A stretch of 14,044 nt of DNA from an uncultured archaeon. Lineage in GTDB: Archaea > Nanohalarchaeota > Nanosalinia > Nanosalinales > Nanosalinaceae. Positions 1-14,044 of this stretch are shown here, piece after piece. The notes beneath the pieces were generated by a model, which did no database searches, was not told the DNA's origin, and saw only the letters and a program-made list of their open reading frames with translations. Within the stretch, counting starts at the first letter, position 1, and each line of letters opens with the position of its first letter. The translations under genes and the position numbers were made by a program. Location: contig CAYQYU010000018.1 of assembly GCA_964421955.1 (NCBI GenBank), positions 1-14,044 of the forward strand, given 5' to 3'.

Positions 1-279
1 ATCAGCAGGAGCACCTACTTCTTCTTGGAGTACCGGGATGTAGATAGCTGGTTCTCTACCTTTTTCCTCAAAGAAGTCTTCTACATCCGCTATCAGGCTC
101 TCTGTTACATCATCTTGACTGAAGATTACTGCGTGATTCCAGAAGACATTCGTATCCTCATAATCGGCTTCAGTCCAAGCGTAGAAACCAAAGTCTTCTT
201 CCTTTGTATTCTTGATATAGAGTGACTTTAGGAACTGATAGTTTTTCTTCAGAGTCTGAATGGCATCTTTCTTGTTCAT
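1..279 (-). CDS. Partial CDS running off the window edge; possibly the N-terminal part of a GNAT-family acetyltransferase
   Basis: Hand translation from ATG at 279 is open to base 1: MNKKDAIQTLKKNYQFLKSLYIKNTKEEDFGFYAWTEADYEDTNVFWNHAV...DVEDFFEEKGREPAIYIPV. Not in the ORF track because there is no stop in the window. The family call rests only on a loose resemblance in the 'WNHAV...FFEEKGREP' segment. Confidence 0.6.
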   Translation of the reverse strand, partial: MNKKDAIQTLKKNYQFLKSLYIKNTKEEDFGFYAWTEADYEDTNVFWNHAVIFSQDDVTESLIADVEDFFEEKGREPAIYIPVLQEEVGAPAD

Positions 280-323
280 AGATAATTTTCTCTCCGTTAA
301 CTTCTATGTAGTTTTTGGCTATA

Positions 324-701
324 TTATCCGGTCAGTATGTAGACACCTACTACGAACATTATCACCGATATTAATCTCAGAATGTTAGCTTTCCAACTCA
401 TATCTTCATCTGGGAAGTAGTCTCTTCCTGCTTTTCTGAAGGCTATTACTGTGGCTATTACGAATATAGGTCTGATGTTGAGAGATGCTGTTATTAGTGC
501 TACTTTACCTGTTTCGAGAGCTAAAGTGAATACCAAAAAGCCGAGGTAGAAGAATATTCTTCCCGGAAGCAGAAGTTTAAGGTATTCTTTTTCTTTCCAG
601 CTTCCCAGTGAACCTCTTACACCTTCATTTAGGGAGATAAGTACGGAGGAGAGGAAATCACCTACGAGGGCGGATGCGTAAGCAGGTAGGCTTCTCGACA
701 G
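324..701 (-). pseudogene. EamA/DMT-family transporter, C-terminal remnant
   Basis: The frame is open from 701 to 324 (LSRSLPAYASALVGDFLSSVL...GRIFFYLGFLVFTLALETGKVALITASLNIRPIFVI...LISVIMFVVGVYILTG) with an EamA-like helix pattern. It is bounded by TAA at 702-704 and has no suitable start. Hydrophobic fragments continue in other frames to about 790. Confidence 0.6.
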
Positions 702-799
702 TTAACTTTTACGGAAATGTCGAAGGGGTTGACTACGATGATGAAGCAGATAGACTGATAGTGGTGGCAAGAAAATGAAAATCAGGAGAGAAGTTTCTA

Positions 800-892
800 T
801 TAGTGTTCTTCTTCGGCATGCTCTTCTAGTTCTTCTTCCGTTTCGAAGCTTCCACCACATGCTTTGCATACCTTGTCATCGTCGTCTCCTAT
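800..892 (-). CDS. 30-aa acidic C2H2 zinc-finger microprotein, copy 1 (ATA at the start position)
   Basis: Hand translation (I/M)GDDDDKVCKACGGSFETEEELEEHAEEEH*, pattern C-x2-C-x3-F-x5-L-x2-H-x4-H. Preceded by SD GGAGGTGA (900-907). Clear paralogue at 8604-8702. Confidence 0.75.
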   Translation of the reverse strand: MGDDDDKVCKACGGSFETEEELEEHAEEEH

Positions 893-914
893 AATTTGAT
901 CACCTCCTAGTGTT

Positions 915-1184
915 CTATTTTACTTCTCCGCCGTTTGCCCAGGTTTTAAGTGTATCCATGTCAGCTTCGCCGCATATCCATTCATCTGTCTCAGTGTTGT
1001 AGAAGAAAGGTACTCCGCCGCATTTTCCATCGTCTAATTCTTTTTGTTTTTCAGCGTTTTCTTTGTCGTTCCATACCTCAAGCTGTTCTACTTTTACGTT
1101 CTCTACGTCTTCTAGCTTATCCACTTTAGGCATCATTTTTTCGCAATGCGGACAGCCATCGCCGTAGAACTCATAAAGTGTCAT
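915..1184 (-). CDS. Small thioredoxin/glutaredoxin-like protein, copy 1
   Basis: CPHC active site, GVP cis-Pro motif, 89 aa; 71 of 88 residues identical to the copy at 8714-8980 by manual alignment. Confidence 0.9.
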   Translation of the reverse strand: MTLYEFYGDGCPHCEKMMPKVDKLEDVENVKVEQLEVWNDKENAEKQKELDDGKCGGVPFFYNTETDEWICGEADMDTLKTWANGGEVK

Positions 1185-1207
1185 ACACGTTAAACCGGTT
1201 CGGCAGG

Positions 1208-1236
1208 TTATTAAACAGGCGCTTACCTTGATGAAA
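1208..1236 (-). promoter_or_regulatory. TATA-like box and candidate operator for thioredoxin copy 1
   Basis: Minus strand reads TTTC-ATCAAG-GTAA-GCGCCTG-TTTAATAA. The TATA-like box is about 24-31 nt before the ATG at 1184. The same layout occurs at 9003-9031 and 3808-3837. Confidence 0.45.
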
Positions 1237-1237
1237 T

Positions 1238-1579
1238 CTATAAGTTCGACCCGTGTTTTTCTCCCCAGTCAAACATTAGCTTGATTACTTTTTCTAGAGA
1301 TTTGCCGTTTTCTGTAAGTGAATACTCTACTTTCTTAGGTTTTCTTTCTATAACTTTCTTTTCTACTAATCCTTTCTCTATTAGATCTCTTAGGCTGTCT
1401 GAGAGAACTTTATCAGAGACATGGTGAACTTCACGCTGTAACTCGTTGAAACCCATAGGTCTTTTCAGTAGCCTGTGGACGATAACAGGGTGCCACTTTC
1501 TTCCAAGAATTTCAGCGGTCACGGTAATAGGACACCATTCTTGGGTTTCACACCACTCTGGCATGTTTTTCTCTTCCAT
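1238..1579 (-). CDS. HxlR/DUF24-family winged-helix transcriptional regulator, copy 1
   Basis: WCETQEWCPITVTAEILGRKW...MGFNELQR...VSDKVLSDSLRDL...PKKVEYSLTENG is a typical HxlR pattern; GAGGTG SD at 1586-1591. Confidence 0.9.
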   Translation of the reverse strand: MEEKNMPEWCETQEWCPITVTAEILGRKWHPVIVHRLLKRPMGFNELQREVHHVSDKVLSDSLRDLIEKGLVEKKVIERKPKKVEYSLTENGKSLEKVIKLMFDWGEKHGSNL

Positions 1580-1657
1580 TTACTGCACCTCGAAGATTTT
1601 AATTAATTTTTTGTAAAGAATACCTTTTGAATAGATTAACGGTTTTTAGCGAATTTC

Positions 1658-1875
1658 TCAATTTTTCTTGAGCCTCTCCTTGATTTCTGAGATCGCTTTC
1701 TTAGTGCCGCAGAAACAGGTGAAGTAGTTCGCTATAAATCCTAATCCTGCTATACTGAAGAATATAACTAGATTCGTTAAGCCCTGGCTAAGGAAGATTA
1801 GTAGAGCTGCGATTTCGAAGCCTATACGGTGAAAAGCCTCCTCTTCCTCTCTTTTTCATCAAGGTTCTGCTCCAT
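1658..1875 (-). pseudogene. Frameshifted small membrane protein, DUF2892/YgaP-like
   Basis: ATG at 1875 overlaps the SDR stop (TAATG). MEQNLDEKERKRRLFT hits a stop at 1822-1824. Restoring one base near 1827 gives ...IGFEIAALLIFLSQGLTNLVIFFSIAGLGFIANYFTCFCGTKKAISEIKERLKKN*, with two TM helices and an FC motif like DUF2892. Confidence 0.65.
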
Positions 1876-2687
1876 TAATTATCACCTTCGAATCCGTTTT
1901 CGATATTGAAAATTCTTCCCCTGTTATCTGAAACCCCGTAGAACTGGTGATAACCGGACTTTTTCTCGGGATCAGCCTTAATGATGGATGTTAGCGTTCT
2001 TCCCAGATCCTTATGACTCCAACGAAGTGTATGGTAATAAGGCTCTCCCTTCAGAGACTCTTTGTCCTCTGGATTAACTCCTCCGATTCTAATGCTGACT
2101 CCTATGCTGAAGTTACCTTCTTCGACTTCCTTTCGAAGTACTCTTTCAGTCATTACTTTATGCCATCCATAAGGACTGTCAGGGTTCTCCTCTCTAGGAT
2201 CTAAAAGCTTTCCAGGTTCATCCTTTCTCATGTCAAAACTTGAATCAGAGTCTATACTGCTTCTATATGGCTCAGGAGTATTTTCTAGACTGGCTTCCAC
2301 AGTATAAGCAGCTATATCCCCTGTTCCTGCGTGAATAGAGCTTCCGTTTATGAAAATAGGTACACCTGCATTTTTAGAGGCTTCAAGAATATTATGATAC
2401 ATATACATGTTTCCTTTCCAAGCCTTATGCGTATCAAAATTTTCTACCGGTATGTTCCAAGCAAGGTGGAAAACTGCGTCTACTTCTTCCTCCTTCATAA
2501 TATCTTCTAGTCTACTGAGATCGGTTTCATCAAGAAGATCTATTCTCTCAGTACGGGTGTAACAGTTTTCGTCTTCCCTGACGCTACGGCTGACACCTAT
2601 CACATCAAAACCTTGATCGCAGAGATAGCTTCCTGCTGCCCTTCCAACAGTTCCTGAAGCCCCGGTCACCAGAATTGTCTTAGTCAT
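1875..2687 (-). CDS. Extended SDR NAD(P)-dependent epimerase/dehydratase-family oxidoreductase
   Basis: ILVTGASGTVG Rossmann motif, VFHLA, SS, YGWHK (YxxxK), SIRIG and FYGVSDN. Start placed at MTKTIL (2687) because the longer ORF overlaps the DUF3179 gene. Confidence 0.88.
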   Translation of the reverse strand: MTKTILVTGASGTVGRAAGSYLCDQGFDVIGVSRSVREDENCYTRTERIDLLDETDLSRLEDIMKEEEVDAVFHLAWNIPVENFDTHKAWKGNMYMYHNILEASKNAGVPIFINGSSIHAGTGDIAAYTVEASLENTPEPYRSSIDSDSSFDMRKDEPGKLLDPREENPDSPYGWHKVMTERVLRKEVEEGNFSIGVSIRIGGVNPEDKESLKGEPYYHTLRWSHKDLGRTLTSIIKADPEKKSGYHQFYGVSDNRGRIFNIENGFEGDN

Positions 2688-2700
2688 ACTATTTATTGTC

Positions 2701-3786
2701 TCAGCTTTGATTGTAAACACTTGTGTCTTGGTTGAACTTGCTCCAAGCAAACCAGTAGAATCCCTTCGTAGAGATTCTCTCAAGTCTGTCATCCTCCACA
2801 TCCCAGGCTGTGCCTGAAGAGTCAACTAGTCGTCCGTTCTCAAGAGAAAGATCGAGCTTCTCTCCCTCGTTCTTTCTGATGAAGGCAACAATTGTTCCAT
2901 CTTTCGGATTTTCGAGAACCGCCACAGGTGTTCCGCCGACTTCATCCTGTATTAACCTATCCTCTCTGATATCCTGCTCAGGGTAAGCCTTTGAGGAACC
3001 ATTCAAGTTTATGCCGTATACAACTGTCTTGGATTCAAGTCTATCATCTACGTTTCCTACTCCAAATCCGACTCTTTGACTCTTCTTGTAGCTAGAGTAA
3101 GCACTTCCTTGATACGTTGAGGCGGGGTATATACCTGTGTCACGAGATAAAATACTTGTGTTTGGATGTCCTGATTTCCAACTAGACCAGTTGGAGACTG
3201 AAGAATGCACAAGTTCAAGGCTCTGACCTGTCCGAGGACCTATGATCGCATTTCCTCTGATCTGGCTCCAATAACTTTCGGTAGAACGGTCGTACATTAC
3301 GAGGTTAGCATTCAACAGCTTTCCGGATACTCCGAATTCAAGGTTTTCTCCATTGATATTTCTGGAATACGTCACTCCAGAACGGCAGAGAGGGCAGTAG
3401 GTGACGACTATCCGCTCTCCCGCTATTTCATCGTTGACTATCTCGTGTCTGTCCAGTATTCTCAACGGGTATGCCTTTGAAACGTTTTCTTCCTCTATGC
3501 CTATCACCGGATCATCAGGTCTCATCCAGTCAGATTCTTCTACAGTTTCGAAACTTGGATCGTCAATTGAAGGAATACAGTCCTTTCCAGGGCATCCCAG
3601 TACTAGCTCGGAAGGATGGACAGTATATTTTTTACCGTCCTCGGTTGTCATGTAATCCTGGCCTGAAAGGTTTCTTTCAGGAACCACCTGTTGTTCTCCA
3701 TTAAAGCTAGATTCGGCCGCCAAGTAGAGAGTTGTGAGGATTGCGAGAGAAACTACTGCGGCCGCCAGATAGTGTTTTCTCTCCAT
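2701..3786 (-). CDS. DUF3179-family protein with an N-terminal membrane anchor
   Basis: KDCIPSIDDP, KAYPLRILDRHEIVND, VTYCPLC, FGVSGKLLNANLVMYDRSTESYWSQ and FYWFAWSKF match DUF3179. Hydrophobic N-terminus. Start placed at MERKHY (3786). Confidence 0.88.
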   Translation of the reverse strand: MERKHYLAAAVVSLAILTTLYLAAESSFNGEQQVVPERNLSGQDYMTTEDGKKYTVHPSELVLGCPGKDCIPSIDDPSFETVEESDWMRPDDPVIGIEEENVSKAYPLRILDRHEIVNDEIAGERIVVTYCPLCRSGVTYSRNINGENLEFGVSGKLLNANLVMYDRSTESYWSQIRGNAIIGPRTGQSLELVHSSVSNWSSWKSGHPNTSILSRDTGIYPASTYQGSAYSSYKKSQRVGFGVGNVDDRLESKTVVYGINLNGSSKAYPEQDIREDRLIQDEVGGTPVAVLENPKDGTIVAFIRKNEGEKLDLSLENGRLVDSSGTAWDVEDDRLERISTKGFYWFAWSKFNQDTSVYNQS

Positions 3787-3807
3787 GCCTAAGTTGTGTT
3801 GCCTTTG

Positions 3808-3837
3808 CTTTTCAAGAGCCAAGTTACCTCACGGTAA
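3808..3837 (-). promoter_or_regulatory. Inverted repeat TTACC-N4-GGTAA and TATA-like TTGAAAAG in the divergent DUF3179/msrA spacer
   Basis: TTACC-TCAC-GGTAA at 3824-3837; TTGAAAAG (minus strand, 3808-3815) is 22-29 nt before the ATG at 3786. Confidence 0.5.
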
Positions 3838-3890
3838 GTTGCGTTCTCTATTCAGGGAAGGTTTTTACCGTTTGAATTCAACTGTTCTCT

Positions 3891-4562
3891 ATGGAAGGAA
3901 GGACTGTGGCCGTGATTTCCCTGTTGCTTATCGGGCTTATCGGCCTGGTCGTGACTTTGGCAGTTGATGGAATGAGTGAAGACAAGAAATCTTCGGGGCC
4001 GGAATGGCGTTCAGAAATCGTTGATGAGGATCCTCAGAAGGCCACTTTTGCCGGCGGCTGCTTCTGGTGCATCGAGGCAGTCTACGAGGGAGTCAAAGGT
4101 GTAGATTCCGCAGTATCAGGATATGCTGGCGGCAGTAAAGAGACAGCGACATATGGACAGGTACTGACTGGAGAAACCGATCACAGGGAGGCGGTGCAGG
4201 TGAAGTATTACCCGTCAATAATATCTTACAGCGAACTGCTTGAAATGTACTGGAGGAGCATCGACCCTACTGATGCGGGCGGACAGTTTTCGGACCGTGG
4301 GCCACAGTACACTACCGCGATCTATGTACATAATAAGGAGCAGCGCCGGATCGCTGAAGAGTCTAAAGAGAACCTGAGTGAAAGCGGAAGGTTCGAGGAG
4401 CCGATAGTGACTGAGATCGAGAACTTCACAACTTTCTTCAGGGCAGAGAAAAAGCACCAGAACTACTCACGCAAGAGAACCGCCCACTACAAAGTGTACG
4501 AGAGAGCTTCAGGCAGGAAGGGTTTTGTAGAGCGTGTGTGGGGCAAAAGCCCGCTGGAATGA
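3891..4562 (+). CDS. msrA: Peptide-methionine (S)-S-oxide reductase MsrA with an N-terminal TM anchor
   Basis: ATFAGGCFWCIE, VSGYAGG, TDHREAVQV, DPTDAGGQFSDRGPQY and FFRAEKKHQNY; hydrophobic residues about 6-25. Confidence 0.96.
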   Translation: MEGRTVAVISLLLIGLIGLVVTLAVDGMSEDKKSSGPEWRSEIVDEDPQKATFAGGCFWCIEAVYEGVKGVDSAVSGYAGGSKETATYGQVLTGETDHREAVQVKYYPSIISYSELLEMYWRSIDPTDAGGQFSDRGPQYTTAIYVHNKEQRRIAEESKENLSESGRFEEPIVTEIENFTTFFRAEKKHQNYSRKRTAHYKVYERASGRKGFVERVWGKSPLE

Positions 4563-5402
4563 TCAGTTCAGCTCCTGGAACCTCTTGACCAGTTTTTCTT
4601 TTTCGGGCACATCATAACCCTGGGAGAAAAGCTTTCCGTTGACTAAAAGTACCGGTGGATGAAATCCTCCCCTGATTAGGGGTCTGAGGAATCTTGTCCA
4701 GTAGGATTTGACCTGGATGTCGACTTCTCCGTCGATTTCCTCCGAGGCCTGTTGTACTGCTCTTATGAAGAGATGACATTCCTTGCAGAAACTTTCAGGA
4801 ATCCTTATTATGCCATGCATTCCTGTTACAACGTATACCTCGGCGGTTATGTCGCTATCTGTTTTTCCCTCGAAAGGCAGAATGGATGCTTTGATAGAGT
4901 GCCGGGAAGGCGGCAGAGAGGCCTGGGTTTTCCGATAGGTGTCGGCTGAGAGACTGGTTATGAGGTAGATCCAGAGAAAGTGGAGATACCAGCGACCATA
5001 CTGGAAGACAAGATCAGCGATTCCAGTACTTACCTGATCGTAGATTATCTTTACGGGGAAGAATATCTGGGAAGACGCACTGAAAGACAGGTTGAGCAGA
5101 CCCGAAAGCGGGAATTGGATGCCGTATATGAAGCTCGCCGCGGTGAGCAGGAATACGGGCGTTACTGCGTAGAACTTGCGGCGTTTTTCAAGGAAGAATT
5201 TGTTGAGTTCCTCTTCCAGGGATCCGAGATTCCTGTAGATGAATTTCATCGGCAGAAACATTGCGAAACCGGTCAATACGCCTATTAAGGATATTATTGA
5301 CGGCGACTCAAACACGTTCACTGTGAGTGCTGCGAGCGCAAGTATATTGAGCAGGGAGAAGATTACCGCTCCTGTGACTAGTATTATTTTCCCCGGTTTC
5401 AT
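4563..5402 (-). CDS. Multi-TM membrane protein with a C-terminal thioredoxin-like CxxC domain
   Basis: About four hydrophobic segments in the first 155 aa, then FCKEC and HPPVLLVNGK (cis-Pro/beta-hairpin pattern of the Trx fold). ATGA overlap with the ccdA stop. Confidence 0.7.
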   Translation of the reverse strand: MKPGKIILVTGAVIFSLLNILALAALTVNVFESPSIISLIGVLTGFAMFLPMKFIYRNLGSLEEELNKFFLEKRRKFYAVTPVFLLTAASFIYGIQFPLSGLLNLSFSASSQIFFPVKIIYDQVSTGIADLVFQYGRWYLHFLWIYLITSLSADTYRKTQASLPPSRHSIKASILPFEGKTDSDITAEVYVVTGMHGIIRIPESFCKECHLFIRAVQQASEEIDGEVDIQVKSYWTRFLRPLIRGGFHPPVLLVNGKLFSQGYDVPEKEKLVKRFQELN

Positions 5403-6124
5403 TCTATACCTGTCCCTGGCAGGAATTCGAGTGTTTCAGTAGGGACCAGGTGGAGCCCGAAGATGTCAAAGACTCCGAAAAGATAGTAGAATGCAACTGC
5501 AAACATTATCAGTCCTGTGACTCTATTTATTCTGGTCTGGTGCATTGTCAGCGTCTGGACTATCTTCTTACTCCAGCTTGATGATATCAGGGAAAATACG
5601 AGAAGGGGGAATCCAATACCCAGGCCGAAAAGCACGAAGTTGAAGACGCTGAACACTGGTGACTGGAAGAGAAATGCGCGTGCAAAGAAGGCGGCGATGA
5701 AGGCAGGGTTGCAGGGGATGATTATAGCTCCGAAGAAGAAGCCGAACCCGAACGCATTCAGAAGGGGGTTATCCGAGCGAGGCCCCTGGTAGCTCGGTAA
5801 TCGGTTCCAGAACTCGATATCAAGTATCAGGCCTATGCTTATCAAACCGAGCAAGAGAAATGCAACCGGTGAGACTATTTCAATGACGCCGGTGAGTGAT
5901 CGCTGGAGCAGTGTCGAGAATACTATGCCGAGAAGCAGCATGAAGCTCATCACCCCTAGGACGACAAGAAGGCCAAACAGGGCATAAGTTTTCCTGCTTT
6001 CCTCCCCGCTGAACTGTTTCGAGAGGTAGGCGATGAAGCCAGGATAAAGCGGAAGCACGCAGGCGGCGGTCAGTGGGGTCAGGAGACCGAGAGTGAAAGA
6101 ACTCAGGAGTTCTGCCAGCGCCAT
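5399..6124 (-). CDS. ccdA: CcdA / DsbD-beta-type transmembrane electron transporter
   Basis: GLLTPLTAACVLPLYPGFIAYL and GFFFGAIIIPCNP carry the two membrane Cys; about six TM helices; adjacent to a redoxin gene. Confidence 0.88.
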   Translation of the reverse strand: MALAELLSSFTLGLLTPLTAACVLPLYPGFIAYLSKQFSGEESRKTYALFGLLVVLGVMSFMLLLGIVFSTLLQRSLTGVIEIVSPVAFLLLGLISIGLILDIEFWNRLPSYQGPRSDNPLLNAFGFGFFFGAIIIPCNPAFIAAFFARAFLFQSPVFSVFNFVLFGLGIGFPLLVFSLISSSWSKKIVQTLTMHQTRINRVTGLIMFAVAFYYLFGVFDIFGLHLVPTETLEFLPGTGIE

Positions 6125-6658
6125 TCAGCAGCCCCTTTCTATCTCCTGCTGGAGCCTGGAGGAGGGTTTGACGCCTGTTGAAAGCAGCCTCTCTCCCTCT
6201 TCACACACGAGAACCATCGGAGCTCTCGGAGGAGTGATGATGACATTTCCGTATTCCTTCCTCAACAGGTTTGTAGCCTCGGGAGGTGAGACAGAGTACC
6301 GCCAGCTAAAGCCGTGTCTCTCCAAATGCTGACGTATCTTCTCCTCATCCTCATTGGGATCCACATCCAGCGAAACCGAGGTCACATCGATGTCCTGATG
6401 GAGTTTCCCTACTTCCCGTTGCTGTCTTGTACATGTGGGACACCACACCGCGAACGTTTCTACGAGTACAGGTTTTTCGAGCTCTTCCACGGTGTACTTC
6501 TCTCCGCTTGAGACATCCGTGAGCGGTACTTCTTTCCAGTCAGTAAAGTTTCCTGTGCGGCCTTCACGTTCGCCAGAAAGGCTCAGGGCTCCGAAAGCCA
6601 GGATCAGCGCGGCCACTATACCTGCCGCGGCATATCTCCTGTACTTTTTATCGATCAT
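6125..6658 (-). CDS. Membrane-anchored TlpA/ResA-like redoxin
   Basis: Basic N-terminus then a TM helix; KPVLVETFAVWCPTC; VSLDVDPNED. Start placed at MIDKKY (6658). Confidence 0.88.
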   Translation of the reverse strand: MIDKKYRRYAAAGIVAALILAFGALSLSGEREGRTGNFTDWKEVPLTDVSSGEKYTVEELEKPVLVETFAVWCPTCTRQQREVGKLHQDIDVTSVSLDVDPNEDEEKIRQHLERHGFSWRYSVSPPEATNLLRKEYGNVIITPPRAPMVLVCEEGERLLSTGVKPSSRLQQEIERGC

Positions 6659-8579
6659 TTTCCAGTTCCTCTTTCTTCTCAATATACCTGAAGACGGTTT
6701 CGATAAATGTTGAGTGGGACCAGGTCAGCGGCGCGACCGATTTTCCCTCGCCGGTGAAAGGATCTACCTGCTCGGGAAGCAATCCGGTTTCAAGCGAGTT
6801 CTCACAGGTCCAGTGCATCAGTTCCTTTGCGGTCTCCAGCTCCTCTCTGCTGTCTGCGTCCATTATCCTCTGCTGCGCCAGCCATAGCGTGCATATGATC
6901 CACGGGTTGCCGGGAACACGGTCAAATTCATCTGTTACATTGTGGTATGTGTCGCCGCTGTAACGGGCGATACCTCCTACATCTGTGTCGGGCGAAAGGT
7001 CGTGTTCTATCGCGTTCATGGTATTCCTGTAGTATTCATCGTTTTCATTGACAAGCCCGAACTTCTTGAGGAATATTAACGGTGCGGAAACAGAGTCGTC
7101 GAGCTCACCGTTGACAAGGCCACGGCCGTACCGCTTCTTCTGCTCCGACCTGAGATGTTTTAGTCCTTCCTCTTTGATTTCTCCAGCCCGTTCCCTGTAT
7201 TTTTTGCCGTCCTCATCGATTACCTCCGATATTTCTGCCGCGGCTGTAAGTCCTGCATAAACCGTTGCGACCGTGAAAGTTGAGACATAATGGCGCTCCT
7301 CCCAGAGGTCGTGGCTCGGCTCCGGCAGTTTCAGTTCCTCGTCAAAATAACTGTGGAGGAACTCTGCCGCGGGCTCGATAACGGTCGCGTATTTCTCTTC
7401 GAGCAATTCTTCATCGCCCGTAATCTCGTGGTATCTCTTCAGCGACCAGAGAACCAGCGCGGTCTCATCCTCCTGGATAGGAAGCATCTCGTCCCCATTC
7501 TCGTCTACCCAGGGATGCCAGCTGCTTCCCAGCGATTTATCCGGGTTGTACTTGTGGAGCAGGTAGCCTTCGGGCTGGATCACATCTTCCATGAAGTCGA
7601 AGAAGTTCTCCGCGAACTCCTCGTAGCCGGCCTCCGCCATGGTTTCGGCGACGAATGCGCCGTCCCGGGGCCAGAGGTAGCCGTACTTGTCCTGGTTGAA
7701 GTTCAGGTTCTCCGAATCATTTGCCGCGGTTATTGCCCCGTTCTCGTTTGACTGCCCGGTTATAACAAGTATCGACCGCTTCAGCTGGTTCTCGACGTGT
7801 TCATCGAGCATGCTGGTGTCACAGTCAAGTTTGCCGAGGTGGCCGCGCCAGCACATCGCGGTCTCCCTGAAGTAGTCCTCTATGTTCGGTTTGACCTGGT
7901 TGTTGAGTTCAATTATGCGGTCGAGACTTTTCTCTGCGGTTATCCAGTAGTAGAATGTTTTCTCGCTTTCCGGCCCAATCTCGAGTTCTATGCTGATCGC
8001 CGATTTCACATCCCCCTGTGCGATCGGATTGCCGTTGAGTTTGCCCGTGCTGATGGATTTTTCCGGGTTGTCCCCGTAGACGCCGTACTGCTGGAGGTCG
8101 CTGCATGATCCGCCTTCTTTCTTGACGTTTGCCATAAGGTAGCGTTTCTTCTTGTAGTGGACCAGCCCGTTCTGCCGTGGAAGGAAGAAAGCGGTGTCGC
8201 CTATACCGTTGCCGTAGAGCTGGAAGTCCTGGAGGAAGAATACTTCGACCGACCTCTCAGTTTTCTCGTTATTCTTTACGGTTATCTTCCGCAGGAAGGT
8301 GTTCTCGGTGCAGTGGACACAGCTCTCGAACTCCATCTCCAGATCCTCCATCGAGTTTTTCGCGGTGGATTGAGTGACGATTGTCTCGTCCTGGTAACGC
8401 GGGCGAGTTTCCCAGTCGCTCATCCAGGAGAAACCTTTCCCCATTACCCCTATCCTGTGTTTCTTCCCGAGGACGTGGTTTTCCTGGCCCGCGTATGGAA
8501 AGTAGAGATCCCTGACCCTGAGAGAACTGTCAAGATTGGCGAGCATTGACCCATTTCCAAGCGATATCTGTCTTACCAT
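6648..8579 (-). CDS. Glycoside hydrolase family 15 (glucoamylase-like)
   Basis: YGYLWPRDG, QEDET, DLWEE (general acid), GIARYSGDTY, NPWIICTLW, LLPEQVDP (general base) and PLTWSH; no signal peptide visible. Confidence 0.95.
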   Translation of the reverse strand: MVRQISLGNGSMLANLDSSLRVRDLYFPYAGQENHVLGKKHRIGVMGKGFSWMSDWETRPRYQDETIVTQSTAKNSMEDLEMEFESCVHCTENTFLRKITVKNNEKTERSVEVFFLQDFQLYGNGIGDTAFFLPRQNGLVHYKKKRYLMANVKKEGGSCSDLQQYGVYGDNPEKSISTGKLNGNPIAQGDVKSAISIELEIGPESEKTFYYWITAEKSLDRIIELNNQVKPNIEDYFRETAMCWRGHLGKLDCDTSMLDEHVENQLKRSILVITGQSNENGAITAANDSENLNFNQDKYGYLWPRDGAFVAETMAEAGYEEFAENFFDFMEDVIQPEGYLLHKYNPDKSLGSSWHPWVDENGDEMLPIQEDETALVLWSLKRYHEITGDEELLEEKYATVIEPAAEFLHSYFDEELKLPEPSHDLWEERHYVSTFTVATVYAGLTAAAEISEVIDEDGKKYRERAGEIKEEGLKHLRSEQKKRYGRGLVNGELDDSVSAPLIFLKKFGLVNENDEYYRNTMNAIEHDLSPDTDVGGIARYSGDTYHNVTDEFDRVPGNPWIICTLWLAQQRIMDADSREELETAKELMHWTCENSLETGLLPEQVDPFTGEGKSVAPLTWSHSTFIETVFRYIEKKEELENDR

Positions 8580-8603
8580 TGCGGACCAGCAGAAGTTTCC
8601 TGG

Positions 8604-8702
8604 TTACTCGTGTTCTTCTTCGGCGTGTTCTTCAAGATCTTCGTCGGTTTCAAAGCTTGTGCCGCAGGCCTTGCAGACCTTGTCTTCATCGTCGTCTCCC
8701 AT
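8604..8702 (-). CDS. 32-aa acidic C2H2 zinc-finger microprotein, copy 2
   Basis: MGDDDEDKVCKACGTSFETDEDLEEHAEEEHE*, ATG start. SD GGAGGTG (8708-8714) overlaps the thioredoxin stop codon. Confidence 0.85.
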   Translation of the reverse strand: MGDDDEDKVCKACGTSFETDEDLEEHAEEEHE

Positions 8703-8713
8703 TTAAACACCTC

Positions 8714-8980
8714 CTATACAGATTCTCCGAGGGCCCAGGATTTCAGGGTTTCGAGGTCGGTCTCGCCGCAGATGAACTCGTCGGTTTCAGTGTTGTAGAA
8801 GAAAGGTACTCCGCCGCACTTGCCGTCATCAAGCTCCTGCTGTTTCTCCGCGTTCTCCTTGTTGTTCCAGACCTCCAGCTGTTCAACTTCTACTCCTTCC
8901 TCTTCTTGAAGCTTTTCTACCTTCGGCTCCATTTTCTCGCAGTGGGGGCACCCATCGCCGTAGAACTCGTATAGTGTCAT
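8714..8980 (-). CDS. Small thioredoxin/glutaredoxin-like protein, copy 2
   Basis: MTLYEFYGDGCPHC...KCGGVPFFYN...ICGE. The start at 8980 is set by alignment with copy 1 and by the TATA box at 9003-9010. Confidence 0.9.
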   Translation of the reverse strand: MTLYEFYGDGCPHCEKMEPKVEKLQEEEGVEVEQLEVWNNKENAEKQQELDDGKCGGVPFFYNTETDEFICGETDLETLKSWALGESV

Positions 8981-9002
8981 GCTAAATGATGGCTTTTGCT
9001 CA

Positions 9003-9031
9003 TATAAAAACCCGGAGTTACTTTGTGGAAA
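9003..9031 (-). promoter_or_regulatory. TATA box and candidate operator for thioredoxin copy 2
   Basis: Minus strand reads TTTC-CACAAA-GTAA-CTCCGGG-TTTTTATA; the TATA box is 23-30 nt before the ATG at 8980. Confidence 0.5.
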
Positions 9032-9398
9032 CTGTGAAATCTTCGTCTTCCCTACCGGCTTCAAGCCGCTGCTTCCCCCATTCCGCCATACTCTGGATTG
9101 TAGGCTCCAGGGATTCGCCGATACCTGTAAGCGAGTACTTGACCCGCTTTGGCTCCTCGCTCACCAGTTTTTTCTCGACTATATGTTTATCCTGCAGGTC
9201 TTCAAGGCTCTCTGAAAGCACCTTGTTCGATATCCCCGGGAGATCGTTCTTCATATCGTTGAAACCCATTCCGCCGTTGCTCAGGAGCCGGTGGATGATT
9301 ACTGGGTGCCATTTCTTCCCGAGTATTTTTGCGGTTGCAGTCACGGGGCACCATTCCTCATCGGTGCACCAGACCTTGATCGTGGCCTCGTCTTTCAT
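9018..9398 (-). CDS. HxlR/DUF24-family winged-helix transcriptional regulator, copy 2
   Basis: WCTDEEWCPVTATAKILGKKW...GFNDMK..LPGISNKVLSESLEDL...PKRVKYSLTGIG. Start placed at MKDEAT (9398). Confidence 0.9.
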   Translation of the reverse strand: MKDEATIKVWCTDEEWCPVTATAKILGKKWHPVIIHRLLSNGGMGFNDMKNDLPGISNKVLSESLEDLQDKHIVEKKLVSEEPKRVKYSLTGIGESLEPTIQSMAEWGKQRLEAGREDEDFTVSTK

Positions 9399-9429
9399 GA
9401 TCGGGAATTGAAATTCTACACTTTTCAAG

Positions 9430-9444
9430 GTTACCTTTGGTAAC
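9430..9444. promoter_or_regulatory. Perfect inverted repeat GTTACC-TTT-GGTAAC; candidate HxlR autoregulatory operator
   Basis: Seen directly. It abuts a TATA-like TTGAAAAG (minus strand, 9421-9428) that lies 23-30 nt before the HxlR ATG. Confidence 0.6.
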
Positions 9445-9507
9445 TTTACATACCTGCAGTTGAGATGCTGTAATAATGGATAAGTTGCTGTGTCGGCCCA
9501 CCTTCAT

Positions 9508-9759
9508 ATGTCTGAACTATGGATCAAGACGTGGCGCGAACCTGAGGGACAGACAGTAGAGTGGATCCTTTTCTCCTCTACTGACCAAGATATCAAGCGC
9601 TGCCGCGCCCGTACTCAGCGCGAGGCCCTTGAGAAAGCGGTGGAGTCCGGAATCGAACCTGGTAAAACGGAACATGTCAGGCCGCGTTTCGGTCGTCCGG
9701 GAGAGAATGTTCTTATGGATAACCGCGAATTCTTCCGCGTTCTGGAATCGATGAGGTAG
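9508..9759 (+). CDS. Hypothetical protein, 83 aa
   Basis: ATG-started ORF that fills the gap; its stop abuts the convergent gene at 9760. No family recognised. Confidence 0.6.
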   Translation: MSELWIKTWREPEGQTVEWILFSSTDQDIKRCRARTQREALEKAVESGIEPGKTEHVRPRFGRPGENVLMDNREFFRVLESMR

Positions 9760-10119
9760 TTAAAGTGGAGGTACTCCTATCGCCGTAAATGTGGTGATGC
9801 CGAGCCAGGAAAGTATCGCAAGTATTGCGGCTGCTGCCAGCCACGAGAACAGGCTTATGAATATCGCGTTCAGCCATCCGCCCTCGTACCTCATATTGAT
9901 CACCCAGGCCCAGGATATCAGTGCGAGCCACGGTCCGAGAACTGCGACTCCTCCAACAAAGAAGCTCACGACTCCCCAGACGACCGCACCGATTAGTGCG
10001 GCTACAACGGCATTTGAGAAGTCTTCTTCACCTGTAACCAGTCTTGCTCCTGTGTAGATGCCGAGGCTACCTATAATCAGGCTGACGGTGAATACGAGCA
10101 GTGAATCAATCAGTGCCAT
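9760..10119 (-). CDS. Small four-TM membrane protein of unknown function
   Basis: Hydrophobic 119-aa ORF with a 'RYEGGWLNA' loop; TTTATAA box at 10141-10147 fits a leaderless start. Confidence 0.8.
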   Translation of the reverse strand: MALIDSLLVFTVSLIIGSLGIYTGARLVTGEEDFSNAVVAALIGAVVWGVVSFFVGGVAVLGPWLALISWAWVINMRYEGGWLNAIFISLFSWLAAAAILAILSWLGITTFTAIGVPPL

Positions 10120-10188
10120 AATGGGTAAACCCCGCGTGTCTTATAAACCCATTATTGCAACTGAATGCAGCCAAGAAGGAACTAAAGA

Positions 10189-10479
10189 TTATTCGCTCTT
10201 GTAAAAGATATCCCACATCGCGGATACCAGGAAACCGAGTGTAAGCGCCTCCCACCATACGTAAAGGGGCGGAATATAGAGACCGAAAAGGTTGTAGGTC
10301 TGCCTCGTGGTTGCAGGGATAAGCACGGAGAACATCTCCAGGGTGTAGAATACGAGTGCACCGAGGATCTTCGCCTTCGTCGCATCGGGATTTGACGTAT
10401 CTATCGAGTCGGCGAACAGCAGCACGAATCCCAGTCCCGCGATACCGATAGCCACCTGGAAAATAGCAGTAACCGCCAT
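10189..10479 (-). CDS. Small membrane protein of unknown function
   Basis: 96-aa ORF with about three hydrophobic segments, an ATG start and an upstream TTTAATA box. Confidence 0.65.
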   Translation of the reverse strand: MAVTAIFQVAIGIAGLGFVLLFADSIDTSNPDATKAKILGALVFYTLEMFSVLIPATTRQTYNLFGLYIPPLYVWWEALTLGFLVSAMWDIFYKSE

Positions 10480-10532
10480 ATCTGCTGGAAAATTAGTTTC
10501 CTCCGGTATTAAAGCTTGTTATCAGATAAGTA

Positions 10533-10795
10533 AGCCCGACCCGAGATTTGAACCCGGGACCTCGTCCTATTCGTAGACTGGAACCCTCCAGTCTCACGTT
10601 CACCACGGTTCCACTCTCACCTGACGGTTCGAGTCCAGAAAATAATATTCTGGAAGCCATTCATAGAATGGCTTATTGCGTGTCGATCTGTCGTGAAATC
10701 AGAGATTTCACTCGACTCGAACGAAATCTCCGATTTCGTGACTGAGCGTAACCAGTCGTACCAAGGACGTGCTCTGGCCGCTGAGCTAGTCGGGC
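10533..10795 (-). tRNA. tRNA-Thr(GGT) with a 190-nt intron at position 37/38
   Basis: Exon 1 (10795-10759): GCCCGAC-TA-GCTC-AGCGGCCA-GAGC-A-CGTCC-TT-GGT-A. Exon 2 (10568-10533): A-GGACG-AGGTC-CCGGG-TTCAAAT-CTCGG-GTCGGGC-T. All four stems pair; G1-C72, C2-G71 and U73 fit archaeal Thr. Confidence 0.93.
10569..10758 (-). ncRNA. Long, highly structured tRNA intron
   Basis: Six local hairpins (10575-10594, 10635-10653, 10654-10674, 10693-10711, 10721-10739, 10740-10757) plus a 9-bp long-range helix (10627-10635 with 10714-10722). Confidence 0.8.
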
Positions 10796-10894
10796 GTCTG
10801 TGGTTGAGGTTGGATGGAAATATTCTTAATAGAAATTGTTGAGACGTATCTGAGGAGATCATCCAAAACTGGCTTGCCTAGGTGAAATTCTGAG

Positions 10895-11056
10895 TTAACC
10901 CGCGAACTGGTCGTTCTTCTTCCTGAGGTGTGGGTATCCGCATTTCCTGCAGGTCGTTTTCTCCGGGTTCTTTGTCCGGTTCCGGGCGTTGCATCTCCTG
11001 CAGATGTATACATCCTTGAACACCCGGTTCTCTGCTTCCTCAAATTTTTGTGCCAT
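10895..11056 (-). CDS. rpl40e: 50S ribosomal protein L40e
   Basis: MAQKFEEAENRVFKDVYICRRCNARNRTKNPEKTTCRKCGYPHLRKK has the L40e zinc-ribbon pattern; GGTGA SD at 11064-11068. Confidence 0.95.
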   Translation of the reverse strand: MAQKFEEAENRVFKDVYICRRCNARNRTKNPEKTTCRKCGYPHLRKKNDQFAG

Positions 11057-11156
11057 ATCTGTCTCACCTATAGTCTTCTCGGCGGTCTCAGGTTTTTTAT
11101 ATGCTATGTGGAGGATTATGGAAGAGGATATATCCATGCAGGATCATTACCGTTTT

Positions 11157-11401
11157 ATGACAGAAGAAATACTTTTCGAGGCTGAGAAGAAAGTTTCGCG
11201 TGAAGAGGCTGTTTCCAGGATCCGTGAAATAGTTGATGGAGTTGAAAGCGGTAGTTTAAGACTTTCCTCTGACCGGTTCGATCGAGATTGAACCCGCGGA
11301 GGACATGGCTTGAGGTCAAGGTCGAGCGTGAGAACGGCGAAACTTCTCTCGAAGTAGAGATCGAGTGGGGCGAGGAGCCAGGTTCTCTCGAGGTCGGCTA
11401 A
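11157..11401 (+). pseudogene. Amphi-Trp domain protein with two frameshifts
   Basis: Three consecutive frames join into one protein: MTEEILFEAEKKVSREEAVSRIREIVDGVESGSLRLSSD / GSIEIEPAEDM / LEVKVERENGETSLEVEIEWGEEPGSLEVG*. Shifts at about 11274 and 11308. 'SLEVEIEW' is the family signature. Confidence 0.8.
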
Positions 11402-11437
11402 GTTAGAGTTATCAAGCTGGTACCTAAAGAGTCAGGC

Positions 11438-12241
11438 ATGGAGCTGGTCAACGCGGTTCTGCTCGGAGTTTTACAGGGAATATTCGAGTGGCTGCCGGTA
11501 TCAAGTGAGGCAGTTACAACGTTAGTCATGACGCAGTTTCTCGGCCAAGAGCCGATTAATGCGGTCAACACCGCCATATACCTTCACTCCGGCACGATGC
11601 TCGCCGCGCTACTCTACTTCCGGGGCGACTTTCTGGAGATGTTCCGTCGGATCCCTGGTTACGTCCGGGAGACCGTTGACCAGCCGTCGAAGCTGAAGCA
11701 GCCCGGCCTAATGAACTTTCTAGTGGTGTCAACGTTCGTGAGTTCCGCGCTCGGAGGTACACTCTACGTTTTTGGAACCGGATCACTGCCCTCAAATCCA
11801 GACATCTTTGCAGGGCTTGTGGGTGTAGCTCTGCTCGCGACTGGCCTGATGAAACTGCTTGGAGAGGGGGCTGGAAGGGCGTACAGAGATGCCGACCTGA
11901 ATGACAGCCTTCTTGTGGGTGCGCTACAGGGCCTAGCTATAATACCAGGTATAAGCCGCTCGGGATCGACGATATTCGGCCTGTTCTACCGAGACTTCTC
12001 ATCGGACGACGCTTTCAAACTCTCCTTCCTGATGTCCGTCCCCGCAATATTCATCGCCCAGATCGGGCTGAACCTTTTCTCCGGCTTCACGGTGAATGCG
12101 GAGATGATTATAGCGGCGGCGTCGGCTTTCCTGGCGGGCTATGTCTCTATAGGTGCGGTGCTTGAGGTTGCAAGGAGAATAGAGGTTGGCTACATTGCAG
12201 TGGTGCTGGCACTACTCAGTTTCCTGCCGCTCCTGATCTGA
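11438..12241 (+). CDS. uppP: Undecaprenyl-diphosphate phosphatase (BacA/UppP family)
   Basis: LGVLQGIFEWLPVSS, LHSGT, GALQGLAIIPGISRSGST and LSFLMSVP. Confidence 0.93.
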   Translation: MELVNAVLLGVLQGIFEWLPVSSEAVTTLVMTQFLGQEPINAVNTAIYLHSGTMLAALLYFRGDFLEMFRRIPGYVRETVDQPSKLKQPGLMNFLVVSTFVSSALGGTLYVFGTGSLPSNPDIFAGLVGVALLATGLMKLLGEGAGRAYRDADLNDSLLVGALQGLAIIPGISRSGSTIFGLFYRDFSSDDAFKLSFLMSVPAIFIAQIGLNLFSGFTVNAEMIIAAASAFLAGYVSIGAVLEVARRIEVGYIAVVLALLSFLPLLI

Positions 12242-12312
12242 CAGCAGGTCGTAGCTGAACACAGTAGAAACAGTAAAAATAGTTCCTGACCTTTTCTACT
12301 TTCTAGATAACC

Positions 12313-13824
12313 ATGGCGGTTGATCATACAGGGCCTAGAGAGTTCCATAAGGAAAGTGTCTGCTGGCCTCCTGGGACAGAGCTGACTAACGAGGTTGAAA
12401 GCTATTTTGCAGAGTAAGCACTTGTGCTGGATCACTTTTTAGGCCAGTATGCTTCTGAGATAAGTATCACACAGGACTTTGCCTCTCGTAAAGGTATAGA
12501 AGATAGATGGAGCCATGAAGAAGCTTTCGATCAATCCTATATACCAGAACCGTATGACACACCTGACATCTGGGGTTTTTCTCCCGAAGATGTCGATGGA
12601 GATATACTGGATATAGTATTCTCTGATTCCTTCCAGAATTTACGTGGGAAATCCCAGCAGGGTATTGTATCGTCATTTATCAACAGGTTTGGCACAAGCC
12701 GTTTCGAGCACTCTGTAGATGCTCTTTTCCTGCTGCGGATGCTGGCTTCGAGGTCTTCAGTTGATATAGAGCCGGCTCTTGAGTTGAGAACGATCAGCCA
12801 TGATATCGGCCATGGTGCGGGATCGCACTGGAGTGAAATGGTGATGGGTGACGACTATAGCATCCATGATAAAAGAGCCAGAAAAGTTCTGGAAGCTGAG
12901 GGGTTATGGGGCCGGATAGAACAGAGGTACGGCGATATTTTCGAGCAGAAATATCCGCTCCTGGAAGCTTCGAAACCAGATCTTTCAATTGACCGGCTAG
13001 CGTATATCCTGAAAGATGCCTGGAAACTGAAAGGGCCTGAGGGTTTCTATCCTGAAGACCCTATTCGCCAGAACGGAAACAAAATAGAGGACGTAGTAGA
13101 CTGGAAAGATGTCGAACTTATACTGGACGACATAGAGATTCATACAGAGCTCAGGAATGAGGGGAAACAACAGGAACTAGTTTTCACAGGGGAAGAAGCG
13201 GCCGAAGAACTTGTTTACCTGTACCGGGATCTTGAGGAAAAAGTCTACTTCAACCCGGAGTATGACCTGGTCAACCAGGTTTTCGCAGACGCCGCAGTAA
13301 TGGCTTTGAACGATCATGATATTTCTGTAGAAGAACTCTTCGCACTACCAGACAGCCACGCAATGAACCTTATAGCTGGAAATTCGAGGGCAAGAAATCA
13401 CATGGATGAAATGTTTGACAGACTCAAGAATGGCTACGAAGCTGTCAGGACGGGAGATGATCCAGATATACAGGTAGAACTCAGGAGAGATACGATCAAC
13501 CCGAAGATCAGAGACCGCCCTGATCAGAGACTGGAAGACATGCGAAGATCATCAGAAATATCCCATGTGGAAGGAGATATTGAAGAGTACAGGGAAAGAG
13601 ATGGAGAAGTCATAGCTTACAGCTTCCTGAACTGGGATTACCCGGATGTCCAGCTCTCCAATGATATAGTTGAAACCTGGGAAGAAACGGATTATGTGCC
13701 GGGGAGGCCAAAATATGAGAAACCAGGGACTCTGGTCGGACCCCACCAGAGAGACGGTTCCTACTGGTTCCAGAAAATGAAAGACCTCAGAAAAGGTATT
13801 GCGGAAGAACACTACAAAATGTAA
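12313..13824 (+). CDS. HD-superfamily phosphohydrolase (SAMHD1/dNTP-triphosphohydrolase-like core), with an in-frame TAA at 12415-12417 or else a GTG start at 12424
   Basis: FQNLRGKSQQG, SRFEHS, HDIGHGAGSH and IDRLAYILKD. The ATG at 12313 is in frame with the 12424-13824 ORF and separated from it by a single stop. Confidence 0.75.
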
Positions 13825-13989
13825 GGTTCTTGCCTGTAGAAATCTAGTAAAGGTAGCGGAACACGGCGTTTCGGATTCAAACGCTGTTCGAGCGACGCAC
13901 TATATAGGAAATTGCGGTGCCCGGGATTTCTACCCCGAGCTTGTGCGCAAAGTTCGATCATGCGAAAACTAAAGGTGGTCATGTTGATT

Positions 13990-14005
13990 GAACTGACAGC
14001 AGTTC
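13990..14005 (-). terminator. Short hairpin directly 3' of the tRNA
   Basis: GAACTG-CTGT-CAGTTC begins at the discriminator base. There is no clear U-tract, so a terminator role is uncertain. Confidence 0.25.
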
Positions 14006-14044
14006 GAGCCCGCAGGGATTTGAACCCTGGACCTAGCGGTGTCT
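14005..14044 (-). tRNA. 3' part of a tRNA gene cut by the window edge; Lys- or Arg-like (G73), probably intron-containing
   Basis: Minus strand reads AGAC-A-CCGCT-AGGTC-CAGGG-TTCAAAT-CCCTG-CGGGCTC-G: T-arm, variable loop and acceptor 3' strand. The anticodon cannot be determined. Confidence 0.8.

Follow-up and report, generated by a model that had tools for sequence, protein, structure and literature searches.

The tRNA-Trp intron of euryarchaea, located at the canonical site and approximately 100 nucleotides (nt) long, carries a box C/D guide RNA. Other described systems relate archaeal tRNA introns to movement of DNA. In the Thermoproteales, "transposition" of tRNA introns was proposed (Fujishima et al. 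2010, as summarised in the available part of PMC4033280), and the model put forward for tRNA-Thr(GGU) of Caldiarchaeum, as given in the accessible portion of PMC3293823, has a mobile element integrate with duplication of tRNA fragments and links this event to intron gain. A DPANN splicing endonuclease (EndA) of the alpha4 type, with an "L3" loop and broadened specificity, goes with disrupted tRNA genes (PMC5829648, in part), and introns were counted in 15 of 39 and 4 of 38 tRNA genes of nanohaloarchaea, two of which are described as cultivated (PMC10266531, in part). Here we describe the 190-nt intron of a tRNA-Thr(GGU) gene in a 14,044-nt stretch of DNA (contig CAYQYU010000018.1, positions 1 to 14,044, assembly GCA_964421955.1; hereafter the window) from an uncultured archaeon of the family Nanosalinaceae, phylum Nanohalarchaeota. 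We put at about three in four the probability that this is a genuine spliced intron, compounded of small, self-folding and probably mobile elements.

With introns allowed, ARAGORN called tRNA-Thr(ggt) at c[10533,10795] and gave the gene an intron of 190 nt that begins at tRNA position 38. The intron occupies positions 10758..10569 of the window, minus strand, at the canonical 37/38 site, between a 5' exon bearing the anticodon GGT (tRNA positions 1-37; 10759..10795, minus strand) and a 3' exon in which CCA is not encoded (positions 38-73; 10533..10568, minus strand). Its removal leaves a complete cloverleaf, with the acceptor stem GCCCGAC/GTCGGGC, a D arm, the anticodon stem CGTCC/GGACG, an anticodon loop split as TTGGTA and A, and a T arm. 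A first-pass annotation, made from the letters of the window without database searches, had placed the intron at 10569-10758 with the junctions TTGGTA^CGACTGG and CCAGTCTACGAAT^AGGACG, and both the ARAGORN call and our reading of the junctions agree with it; the boundaries cannot slide, since the flanking bases differ. Default ARAGORN and an Rfam scan at gathering score matched nothing anywhere in the window, and missed this gene because the intron splits it.

The host genome (G000) is a metagenome bin of 922,649 bp in 27 contigs, 98.8% complete, and the Thr gene is the sole one with a GGT anticodon among its 40 ARAGORN tRNA calls. Neither a second intact tRNA-Thr(GGU), the presence of which elsewhere the first-pass annotation had named as one sign of a pseudogene, nor a second copy of either exon was found in this assembly. 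The codons ACC and ACT together make up 4914 of the 9026 Thr codons (54%) in long open reading frames (ORFs). The exons are 85-95% identical to those of Thr(GGT) genes of relatives, and the acceptor stem differs from its orthologues by paired changes (GCCCGAC/GTCGGGC here, GCCCCGC/GCGGGGC there). On these sequence grounds we rate the gene and its intron as real and functional. A pseudogene, killed by the arrival of a mobile element in the anticodon loop, would fit with the missing strict bulge-helix-bulge (BHB) motif and with an intron two to three times the typical length in this genome; we regard it as highly improbable because the GGT gene is single, ACC and ACT are heavily used, the exons are conserved and the acceptor changes are paired. 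The cloverleaf is moreover intact, the relaxed splice geometry described below is kept in the orthologous introns of two relatives (G049, G016), and introns of 131-315 nt interrupt other single-copy tRNA genes of relatives.

That the long intron is an artifact of assembly, its palindromic repeats having been collapsed or chimerized, is conceivable for a region rich in inverted repeats in a 27-contig metagenome bin, and is in our view exceedingly improbable. A contig of 1193 nt produced by a second assembler (Logan) from run X1 agrees with the window at every position of 10540-11000; X1 is possibly the source sample, and the contig, perhaps built from the same reads, is not independent. Run X2, from another study, contains a 190-nt contig that aligns to 10570-10731 (12 differences, 5 gaps) and whose loose end is read as the 3' exon of another tRNA; most of the intron body therefore exists elsewhere as a diverged copy. 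Every block of the intron also has homologues in other genomes. Contig joints in X2 and X6 at which 189-190 nt are left out were considered as traces of splicing and set aside, as they probably stem from intron-less genes of relatives.

The first-pass annotation had reported an intron without a canonical BHB motif. It was right that the strict hBHBh' motif (two 3-nt bulges around a 4-bp helix) does not form; the BHB is relaxed, not missing. In the canonical register, tRNA positions 32-35 pair with intron nt n-2 to n-5. Here U32-A, U33-G and G34-C are followed by a G35xA mismatch, giving three of the four central pairs and leaving the 5' site in a 4x2 loop or, in an alternative description, next to a helix with a 1-nt bulge. 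The 3' bulge, A-U-A38, has the usual 3 nt, and after one extra nucleotide comes an outer helix of 6 bp, GACUGG/CCAGUC, so that the anticodon stem, the 3-nt 3' bulge, the pairing of position 32 with the intron, and the outer helix of a relaxed motif are all present. The Thr introns of G049 and G016, which belong to other genera, have the matching layout, with A opposite G35 and a 6-bp outer helix. Across the 21 canonical-site introns of the genome, the central pairs are complete in 16, three of four in 4 (Thr included) and two of four in 1, and only 2 have an outer helix of at least 3 bp in strict register; departures from the strict motif are therefore the norm here.

A single EndA gene is present (region C1:99416-99697), with both the N- and C-terminal Pfam domains (PF01974, 96.8 bits; PF02778), and RtcB is encoded as well (PF01139, 554 bits). 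The EndA loop between a Tyr and a His, which we take to be the catalytic residues, is 9 residues longer than that of chain 5x89 and within 1-2 residues of those of chains 3iey and 4fz2. A single alpha gene, an extended loop beside the catalytic residues and disrupted tRNA genes are features shared with the alpha4 DPANN enzymes of PMC5829648, as far as the available part of that source goes; the loop of the G000 enzyme would correspond to L3, judging by alignment with the chains above. The relaxed BHB, with its anticodon stem, 3-nt 3' bulge, three central pairs, small internal loop and 6-bp outer helix, would hold the splice sites in place; an alpha-type EndA would then cleave the pre-tRNA, RtcB would ligate the exons, and the intron would leave, probably as a circle.

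As to what the intron is made of, the first-pass annotation had proposed either an undescribed structured or circular RNA or a small mobile element harbored at a site that is spliced. The idea of a singular RNA did not hold: the Thr intron is the longest of the introns of 42-190 nt found in 29 of the 40 ARAGORN calls of this 0.92-Mb genome (a few of the 40 being mis-typed or doubtful, and some tRNAs carrying a second, D-loop intron), and it is a mosaic of modules that it shares with others. One of these is a module captured by the covariance model R1, consisting of a 5-bp covarying stem (P1) with the loop GGUUACGCUC and, within 0-3 nt, the motif ACACGCAA. Among the relatives examined, tRNA-Thr(GGT) is intron-less at 7 loci and has introns of 60-87 nt, of at least three unrelated types, at 8 others. 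Aligned with the Thr introns of G049 (75 nt), G016 (76 nt) and G005 (74 nt) and with the genome's own Arg(GCG) intron, the Thr intron has two extra blocks. The G049 intron consists of P1 with its loop GGUUACGCUC, then ACACGCAA, a hairpin (D) and a tail. In the Thr intron, a first block of 54 nt (10687-10740) lies between P1 and ACACGCAA, where it is missing from G049, G016, G005 and the Arg(GCG) paralogue, and a second of approximately 61 nt comprises hairpin E, module G and a terminal hairpin (10575-10653). The R1 model accordingly matches the Thr intron as two separate halves 54 nt apart, in a place where P1 and ACACGCAA are uninterrupted in the three orthologous introns.

The same pieces recur elsewhere in other company. 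The two hairpins of block 1, of 8 bp each, are each other's reverse complement, and this double hairpin makes up the tRNA-Cys intron of G034, lies within a 315-nt tRNA-Ser intron of G032, stands between protein genes in G038 and G032, and in G030 splits a P1/ACACGCAA element just where it does so in the Thr intron. A paired change from GAAAUC/GAUUUC to GAAACC/GGUUUC supports its folding as two local hairpins. Relatives have module G, in either orientation, in introns of their Arg, Lys and Ser tRNAs, and modules D, G and B occur in other tRNA introns. No module of the Thr intron is without a counterpart in another tRNA intron, and the modules are also met in short insertions that are not introns, beside tRNA genes and between protein genes, many of which have direct target repeats at their flanks. 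When the intron was compared with its own genome by blastn-short, only an 18-nt match to Arg(GCG) and smaller ones were returned, the modules being too short and too diverged for BLAST. A mosaic origin of the Thr intron is thus well supported by these comparisons. Its base would be a lineage-wide intron type of approximately 75 nt (P1 with GGUUACGCUC, ACACGCAA and a hairpin), to which a 54-nt self-complementary double hairpin, entering between P1 and ACACGCAA, and some 61 nt of hairpin modules would have been added. P1, ACACGCAA and the strands of the BHB stay adjacent because each added block folds on itself; such self-folding may explain why inserts are tolerated in introns, and modules would persist since each, in folding, spares the splice motif.

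Read from its 5' end on the minus strand, the intron begins with the P1 hairpin (nt 1-18, CGACU-GGUUACGCUC-AGU; 10741..10758), which matches positions 5-22 of the R1 model at 22.7 bits. These first 18 nt of the 5' module are the same in the Arg(GCG) intron of the genome, and within them nt 2-7, GACUGG, have the outer BHB helix as an alternative partner. Insertion 1 (nt 19-72; 10687..10740), delimited by inverted repeats and by its absence from the orthologues, holds hairpins B1 (10721-10739) and B2 (10693-10711), of 8 bp each and joined by the linker GUUCGAGUCGA, which could alternatively form a single 20-bp hairpin. The 3' half of the module follows (nt 73-84, UCGACACGCAAU, with the J motif ACACGCAA; 10675..10686), as indicated by the alignment and by the second R1 match at 10674-10696. 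Next come hairpin D (AAGCCAUUC-UAU-GAAUGGCUU; 10654..10674), close to identical hairpins being found after ACACGCAA in many relatives, and hairpin E (CCAGAA-UAUUAUU-UUCUGG; 10635..10653), which opens the second addition and is not in the G049 intron. In module G (ACUCGAACCGUCAGGUGAGAGUGGAACCGUGGUGAACGU; 10596..10634), the 5' end pairs with the B1-B2 spacer (10627-10638 with 10711-10722) at 11 of 12 positions, and this pairing is the 9-bp helix of the first-pass annotation. In the terminal hairpin ((G)AGACUGGA-GGGU-UCCAGUCU; 10575..10595, from inverted repeats), the 3' arm CCAGUC (10576-10581) is also able to form helix h' with intron nt 2-7 (10752-10757), and the minimum-energy fold of the pre-tRNA takes this long-range GACUGG/CCAGUC pairing. 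The intron ends with the tail ACGAAU (10569..10574), in which CGA pairs with U32, U33 and G34, an A faces G35, and AU with A38 forms the 3' bulge; the tails of the orthologues, ACAAAC, AUGAAU or ACGAAA, are in the same register.

The first-pass annotation had counted six hairpins and a 9-bp long-range helix, and these are present. The inverted-repeat search found four hairpins with 8-9 perfect pairs, one of 9 bp (AAGCCATTC/GAATGGCTT) and three of 8 bp (GTGAAATC/GATTTCAC, ACGAAATC/GATTTCGT and AGACTGGA/TCCAGTCT), and a fifth with 10-nt arms at 90% (TCCAGAAAAT/ATATTCTGGA); a sixth, of 5 bp (GACUG/CAGUC), was seen by eye, and the long-range helix extends to 11 of 12 pairs (GTTCGAGTCCAG/CTCGACTCGAAC). 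A 6-bp pair, GACTGG/CCAGTC, near both ends and a 32-nt imperfect palindrome are also present. The folding energy of the intron is -79 kcal/mol (z = -6.56), and none of 200 shuffles was as stable. No Rfam family matches the intron, in keeping with the first-pass suggestion that it may be undescribed: an E-value scan of 10480-10850 returned only sub-threshold miRNA and thermometer hairpins, the best at 21.5 bits against a gathering score of 76, and neither that scan nor the one at gathering score matched a group I or group II ribozyme core in the intron. Known self-splicing group I and II ribozymes are longer than 190 nt.

Other introns of relatives and of this genome were noted as well. A tRNA-Ser(TGA) intron of approximately 315 nt (L002, G032:C31) and a tRNA-Val(GAC) intron of approximately 195 nt (L296, G052:C11) are longer than or similar to the Thr intron, and a 152-nt tRNA-Ser(GCT) intron (L318, G008:C70) has module G in both orientations, forming a long palindrome. 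In G000, the genes at C15:16301-16527, C17:5064-5251 and C1:140740-140899, which ARAGORN mis-types as Glu, Gln and Arg, prove on inspection by eye to be tRNA-Leu(TAA), tRNA-Gly(GCC) and tRNA-Leu(CAA), each with an additional intron in the D-loop region, which in tRNA-Gly(GCC) has a 10-nt direct repeat, GTGGCTAA(A/G)A, at both sides.

The P1/ACACGCAA module extends well beyond this locus. A search for the pattern GGTTACGCTC-N5-8-CACGCAA, with exact motifs and one genome per species, returned at least 119 stretches, so that the distribution given here is a sample. Among the matches listed, to which the following counts also refer, a perfect 5-bp stem encloses the 10-nt loop in 66 of 122, against a calculated chance rate of 0.7%. 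From 72 distinct instances we built an alignment (A1) of 65 rows, pre-filtered for at least four of the five stem pairs, after dropping six rows with bacterial titles or odd spacing and one of 34 nt. All of its rows are from records titled as archaea, namely Woesearchaeota (30), "uncultured Methanosarcinales" (17), Nanoarchaeota or Nanoarchaeia (5), Nanohaloarchaea, Nanohalobium, Asbonarchaeaceae and Nanohalalkaliarchaeum (10) and others (3). Covariation, which the first-pass annotation had looked to as a check, is seen at all five stem pairs of these pre-selected rows, with double changes in 39 cells. In the phylum of the window, copies number 1-8 per genome in 38 of 70 genomes (E<=0.001). 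Besides the split Thr copy, G000 has six full ones, in the Arg-GCG and Asn-GTT introns, after tRNA-Ser(CGA), upstream of tRNA-Gly, after a stop codon, and between two DNA polymerase D genes. The module starts 0-4 nt from the 5' splice site or directly after the last base of the tRNA. Rfam has no family for it, and eight loci with an uninterrupted element gave only tRNA and two sub-threshold matches.

Several further features of these records were noted. The metagenome-assembled genomes (MAGs) behind the 17 rows labeled Methanosarcinales have DPANN-like tRNA features, and the label is perhaps unreliable; one such record (L095) contains a tandem array of at least three units, each a 36-40-nt target copy followed by a 53-nt P1/ACACGCAA element. 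A unit of approximately 130 nt, made of P1/ACACGCAA and three more hairpins with a conserved left flank and not visibly within tRNA genes, occurs many times in one Woesearchaeota-titled MAG (L040, L044, L064, L068, L071, L081, L097, L117) and also in L090 and L126; this unit may represent small-RNA genes of an independent family or, alternatively, an element of greater length. One hundred viral stretches with a 15-nt hairpin motif were set aside, their number being by our rough estimate near chance for a 15-mer given the size of the collection.

Evidence for insertion comes from what flanks the module. Exact direct repeats of at least 14 nt abut it in 13 of 59 usable copies in the phylum as compared with 2 of 177 mismatched controls, a control count that is itself inflated by shared tRNA T-arms. 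These repeats, of 14-45 nt, end 0-9 nt before P1 and recur 20-110 nt downstream, and among records labeled otherwise, repeats of 16-70 nt are found at 14 of 49 copies (a count without control), so that about a quarter of copies are flanked in this way. Typically, an intact tRNA gene is followed by the element and by a repeat of the tRNA 3' end. At C14:9330-9690 (minus strand) of G000, the tRNA-Ser(CGA) 3' end GGTTCAAATCCCAGTCCCGGCG occurs three times with two different hairpin elements between, the first of which opens with that 3' end in inverted and imperfect form; the same layout is found at the tRNA-Pro of an Asbonarchaeum-titled record (L028). A reading of the repeated tRNA-Ser ends as part of introns was rejected, as the BHB scan gave no excising BHB, and they are treated as DNA duplications.

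The junction of the small- and large-subunit genes of DNA polymerase D offers a filled and an empty state of one site. Of 30 loci examined (L329-L358), 20 have the small-subunit gene directly upstream. In G007, G023 and G010 the junction is empty, with an overlapping stop/start TGATG, and in G000, G050, G051 and G062 it is filled by inserts of 70-110 nt composed of intron-type modules. The 97-nt insert of G050 is flanked by an 18-nt repeat, the site being empty in its congener G010; that of G000 (C4:64760-64880) has a 17-nt repeat, and in that of G051 one module is inverted. The duplicated segment includes the Shine-Dalgarno-like GGAGGTGA. Flanking repeats and a junction found both filled and empty therefore point to insertion, or to loss by recombination between the repeats. 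Mobility of the module family is likely on this evidence, and the recurrence of modules, the repeats and the filled and empty site favor the mobile-element alternative of the first-pass annotation. Miniature inverted-repeat transposable elements were rejected as a model, since the ends of the elements differ (P1/ACACGCAA at the 5' end, a UGAUGAU hairpin or another module at the 3' end) and repeat length, at 14-70 nt, is not fixed.

A bolder version of our reading would make the P1/ACACGCAA elements and their companion modules an undescribed family of 60-110-nt non-autonomous mobile elements of DPANN archaea. Their insertion, at tRNA genes among other places, would leave long direct repeats of the target, and they would become introns where the pre-tRNA can still form a relaxed BHB; on this view, the Thr intron would consist of three such insertions, nested and piled up. 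We advance this version tentatively, and it may well claim too much.

The Thr intron, or its P1/ACACGCAA core, might alternatively be a functional protein-binding or guide RNA that rides on tRNA processing, being released by EndA from introns, by tRNase Z after the tRNA 3' end, or carried in 3' untranslated regions, with its hairpins forming a working ribonucleoprotein. Such a role, which could coexist with a compound origin, would agree with a stem that covaries while its flanks vary from record to record under the titles Woesearchaeota, Nanoarchaeota and Nanohaloarchaea (the invariance of the loop and ACACGCAA follows from how the pattern was constructed), with the constant place of the module at the very 5' end of a processed product (intron nt 1-4, or after the discriminator base), with the UGAUGAU-plus-hairpin module at many element 3' ends, and with Trp and Met introns that by eye join the module or similar hairpins to box C/D-like motifs. 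We nevertheless find it unlikely. The module is patchy and of low copy, 32 of the 70 phylum genomes having none at E<=0.001; other modules are found in either orientation; in the Thr intron itself, 54 nt separate the two halves of the core; it belongs to no Rfam family; and no target complementarity was identified in an assembly from which rRNA genes are mostly missing. The direct repeats and the filled and empty sites, furthermore, indicate insertion at the level of DNA. In a noisy probe for complementarity between the loop and rRNA, the sole rRNA piece located was a 16S 3' end bordering contig C16; by eye, the loop has at most 6 bp of complementarity to conserved rRNA sequences, which we do not count as evidence.

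Several observations weigh against the Thr intron being a spliced compound of mobile elements. The strict hBHBh' motif does not form, and our own BHB scanner finds the Thr site only at relaxed settings, together with many chance sites. EndA would be of the alpha4 type, although a beta subunit could have been missed. The pre-filter applied to the rows of A1 inflates the percentage of paired positions. Direct repeats of 14-70 nt are unlike the product of a fixed-stagger transposase and could be scars of recombination or integration. Finally, no target duplication longer than 5 nt was found around insertion 1 or the ends of the Thr intron; the Thr copy has no flanking repeat, so that mobility can be argued for the family and not for the Thr copy.

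Set against the described systems, the intron shares with those of the Thermoproteales (PMC4033280, in part) the occurrence of similar BHB-type, protein-spliced introns across tRNA species and positions, which implies spread. It departs from them in that hairpin modules smaller than an intron combine, nest and invert, one of them spanning phylum-level labels, and in that elements also lie outside introns with direct repeats of 14-70 nt, in a DPANN host with a single alpha-type EndA. The Caldiarchaeum model (PMC3293823, in part) concerns the same isoacceptor and has the same layout of an intact tRNA, an insert and a repeated tRNA 3' part, or an upstream repeat of a 5' fragment; the inserts here are of 60-110 nt and have no recombinase gene, whereas the one there is of 1.8 kb and encodes one, and repeats here also flank inserts between protein genes. 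As far as the available parts of these sources go, neither precedent covers sub-intron modules, the P1/ACACGCAA motif, or 60-110-nt inserts with long repeats. Nor did we find the motif, modular nanohaloarchaeal introns or flanking repeats described in the open full-text literature, subscription journals and supplements lying outside that search.

Like the euryarchaeal tRNA-Trp intron, the Thr intron is long, sits at the canonical site and houses a structured RNA. The Trp intron of G000 itself, 103 nt long, has C/D-like boxes when read by eye; the core of the Thr intron has instead the GGUUACGCUC loop and ACACGCAA. The Thr intron was rejected as a host of a box C/D small RNA (sRNA), having neither an RUGAUGA box nor an Rfam match: UGAUGA (box C) is not present in its 190 nt, and no snoRNA or sRNA family of Rfam matched it even at E<=10. 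The box C/D-like motifs of the tRNA-Trp intron and of the 101-nt intron of elongator tRNA-Met (C2:49960-50136 and C6:15456-15630) are GAUGAGG/CUGA and CUGAUGAUU/CCGAUGAUU, and the Trp intron opens with a variant of P1/ACACGCAA.

The surroundings of the tRNA-Thr(GGU) gene are ordinary-looking. By Pfam, the ORFs of the window include an NAD-dependent epimerase (1875-2825), a DUF3179 protein (2701-3822), MsrA (3891-4562), a DsbD-like membrane protein (5399-6124), a GH15 glycosidase (6648-8579) and BacA/UppP (11438-12241), and no integrase or transposase was seen by this means adjoining the tRNA gene. At the very end of the contig, a T-arm-like stretch (14017-14034, minus strand) matches the Thr 3' exon at 17 of 18 positions and is probably a truncated tRNA gene.

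These findings bear on how archaeal tRNA introns arrive. Annotators are warned by a locus at which default tRNA and Rfam scans wholly missed an essential tRNA-Thr(GGU). Four states of the same short modules are represented: canonical introns, D-loop and T-loop introns, inserts directly after a tRNA that are followed by a repeat of the tRNA end, and inserts between protein genes, with filled and empty sites within one genus. Because cultivated nanohaloarchaea have intron-bearing tRNAs, according to the available part of PMC10266531, splicing, intron circles, binding proteins and insertion would be accessible at the bench. If the bolder version of our reading is true, the intron of tRNA-Thr(GGU) would be a living example of how a tRNA intron is gained and grows, and of the survival of only those inserts that fold on themselves.

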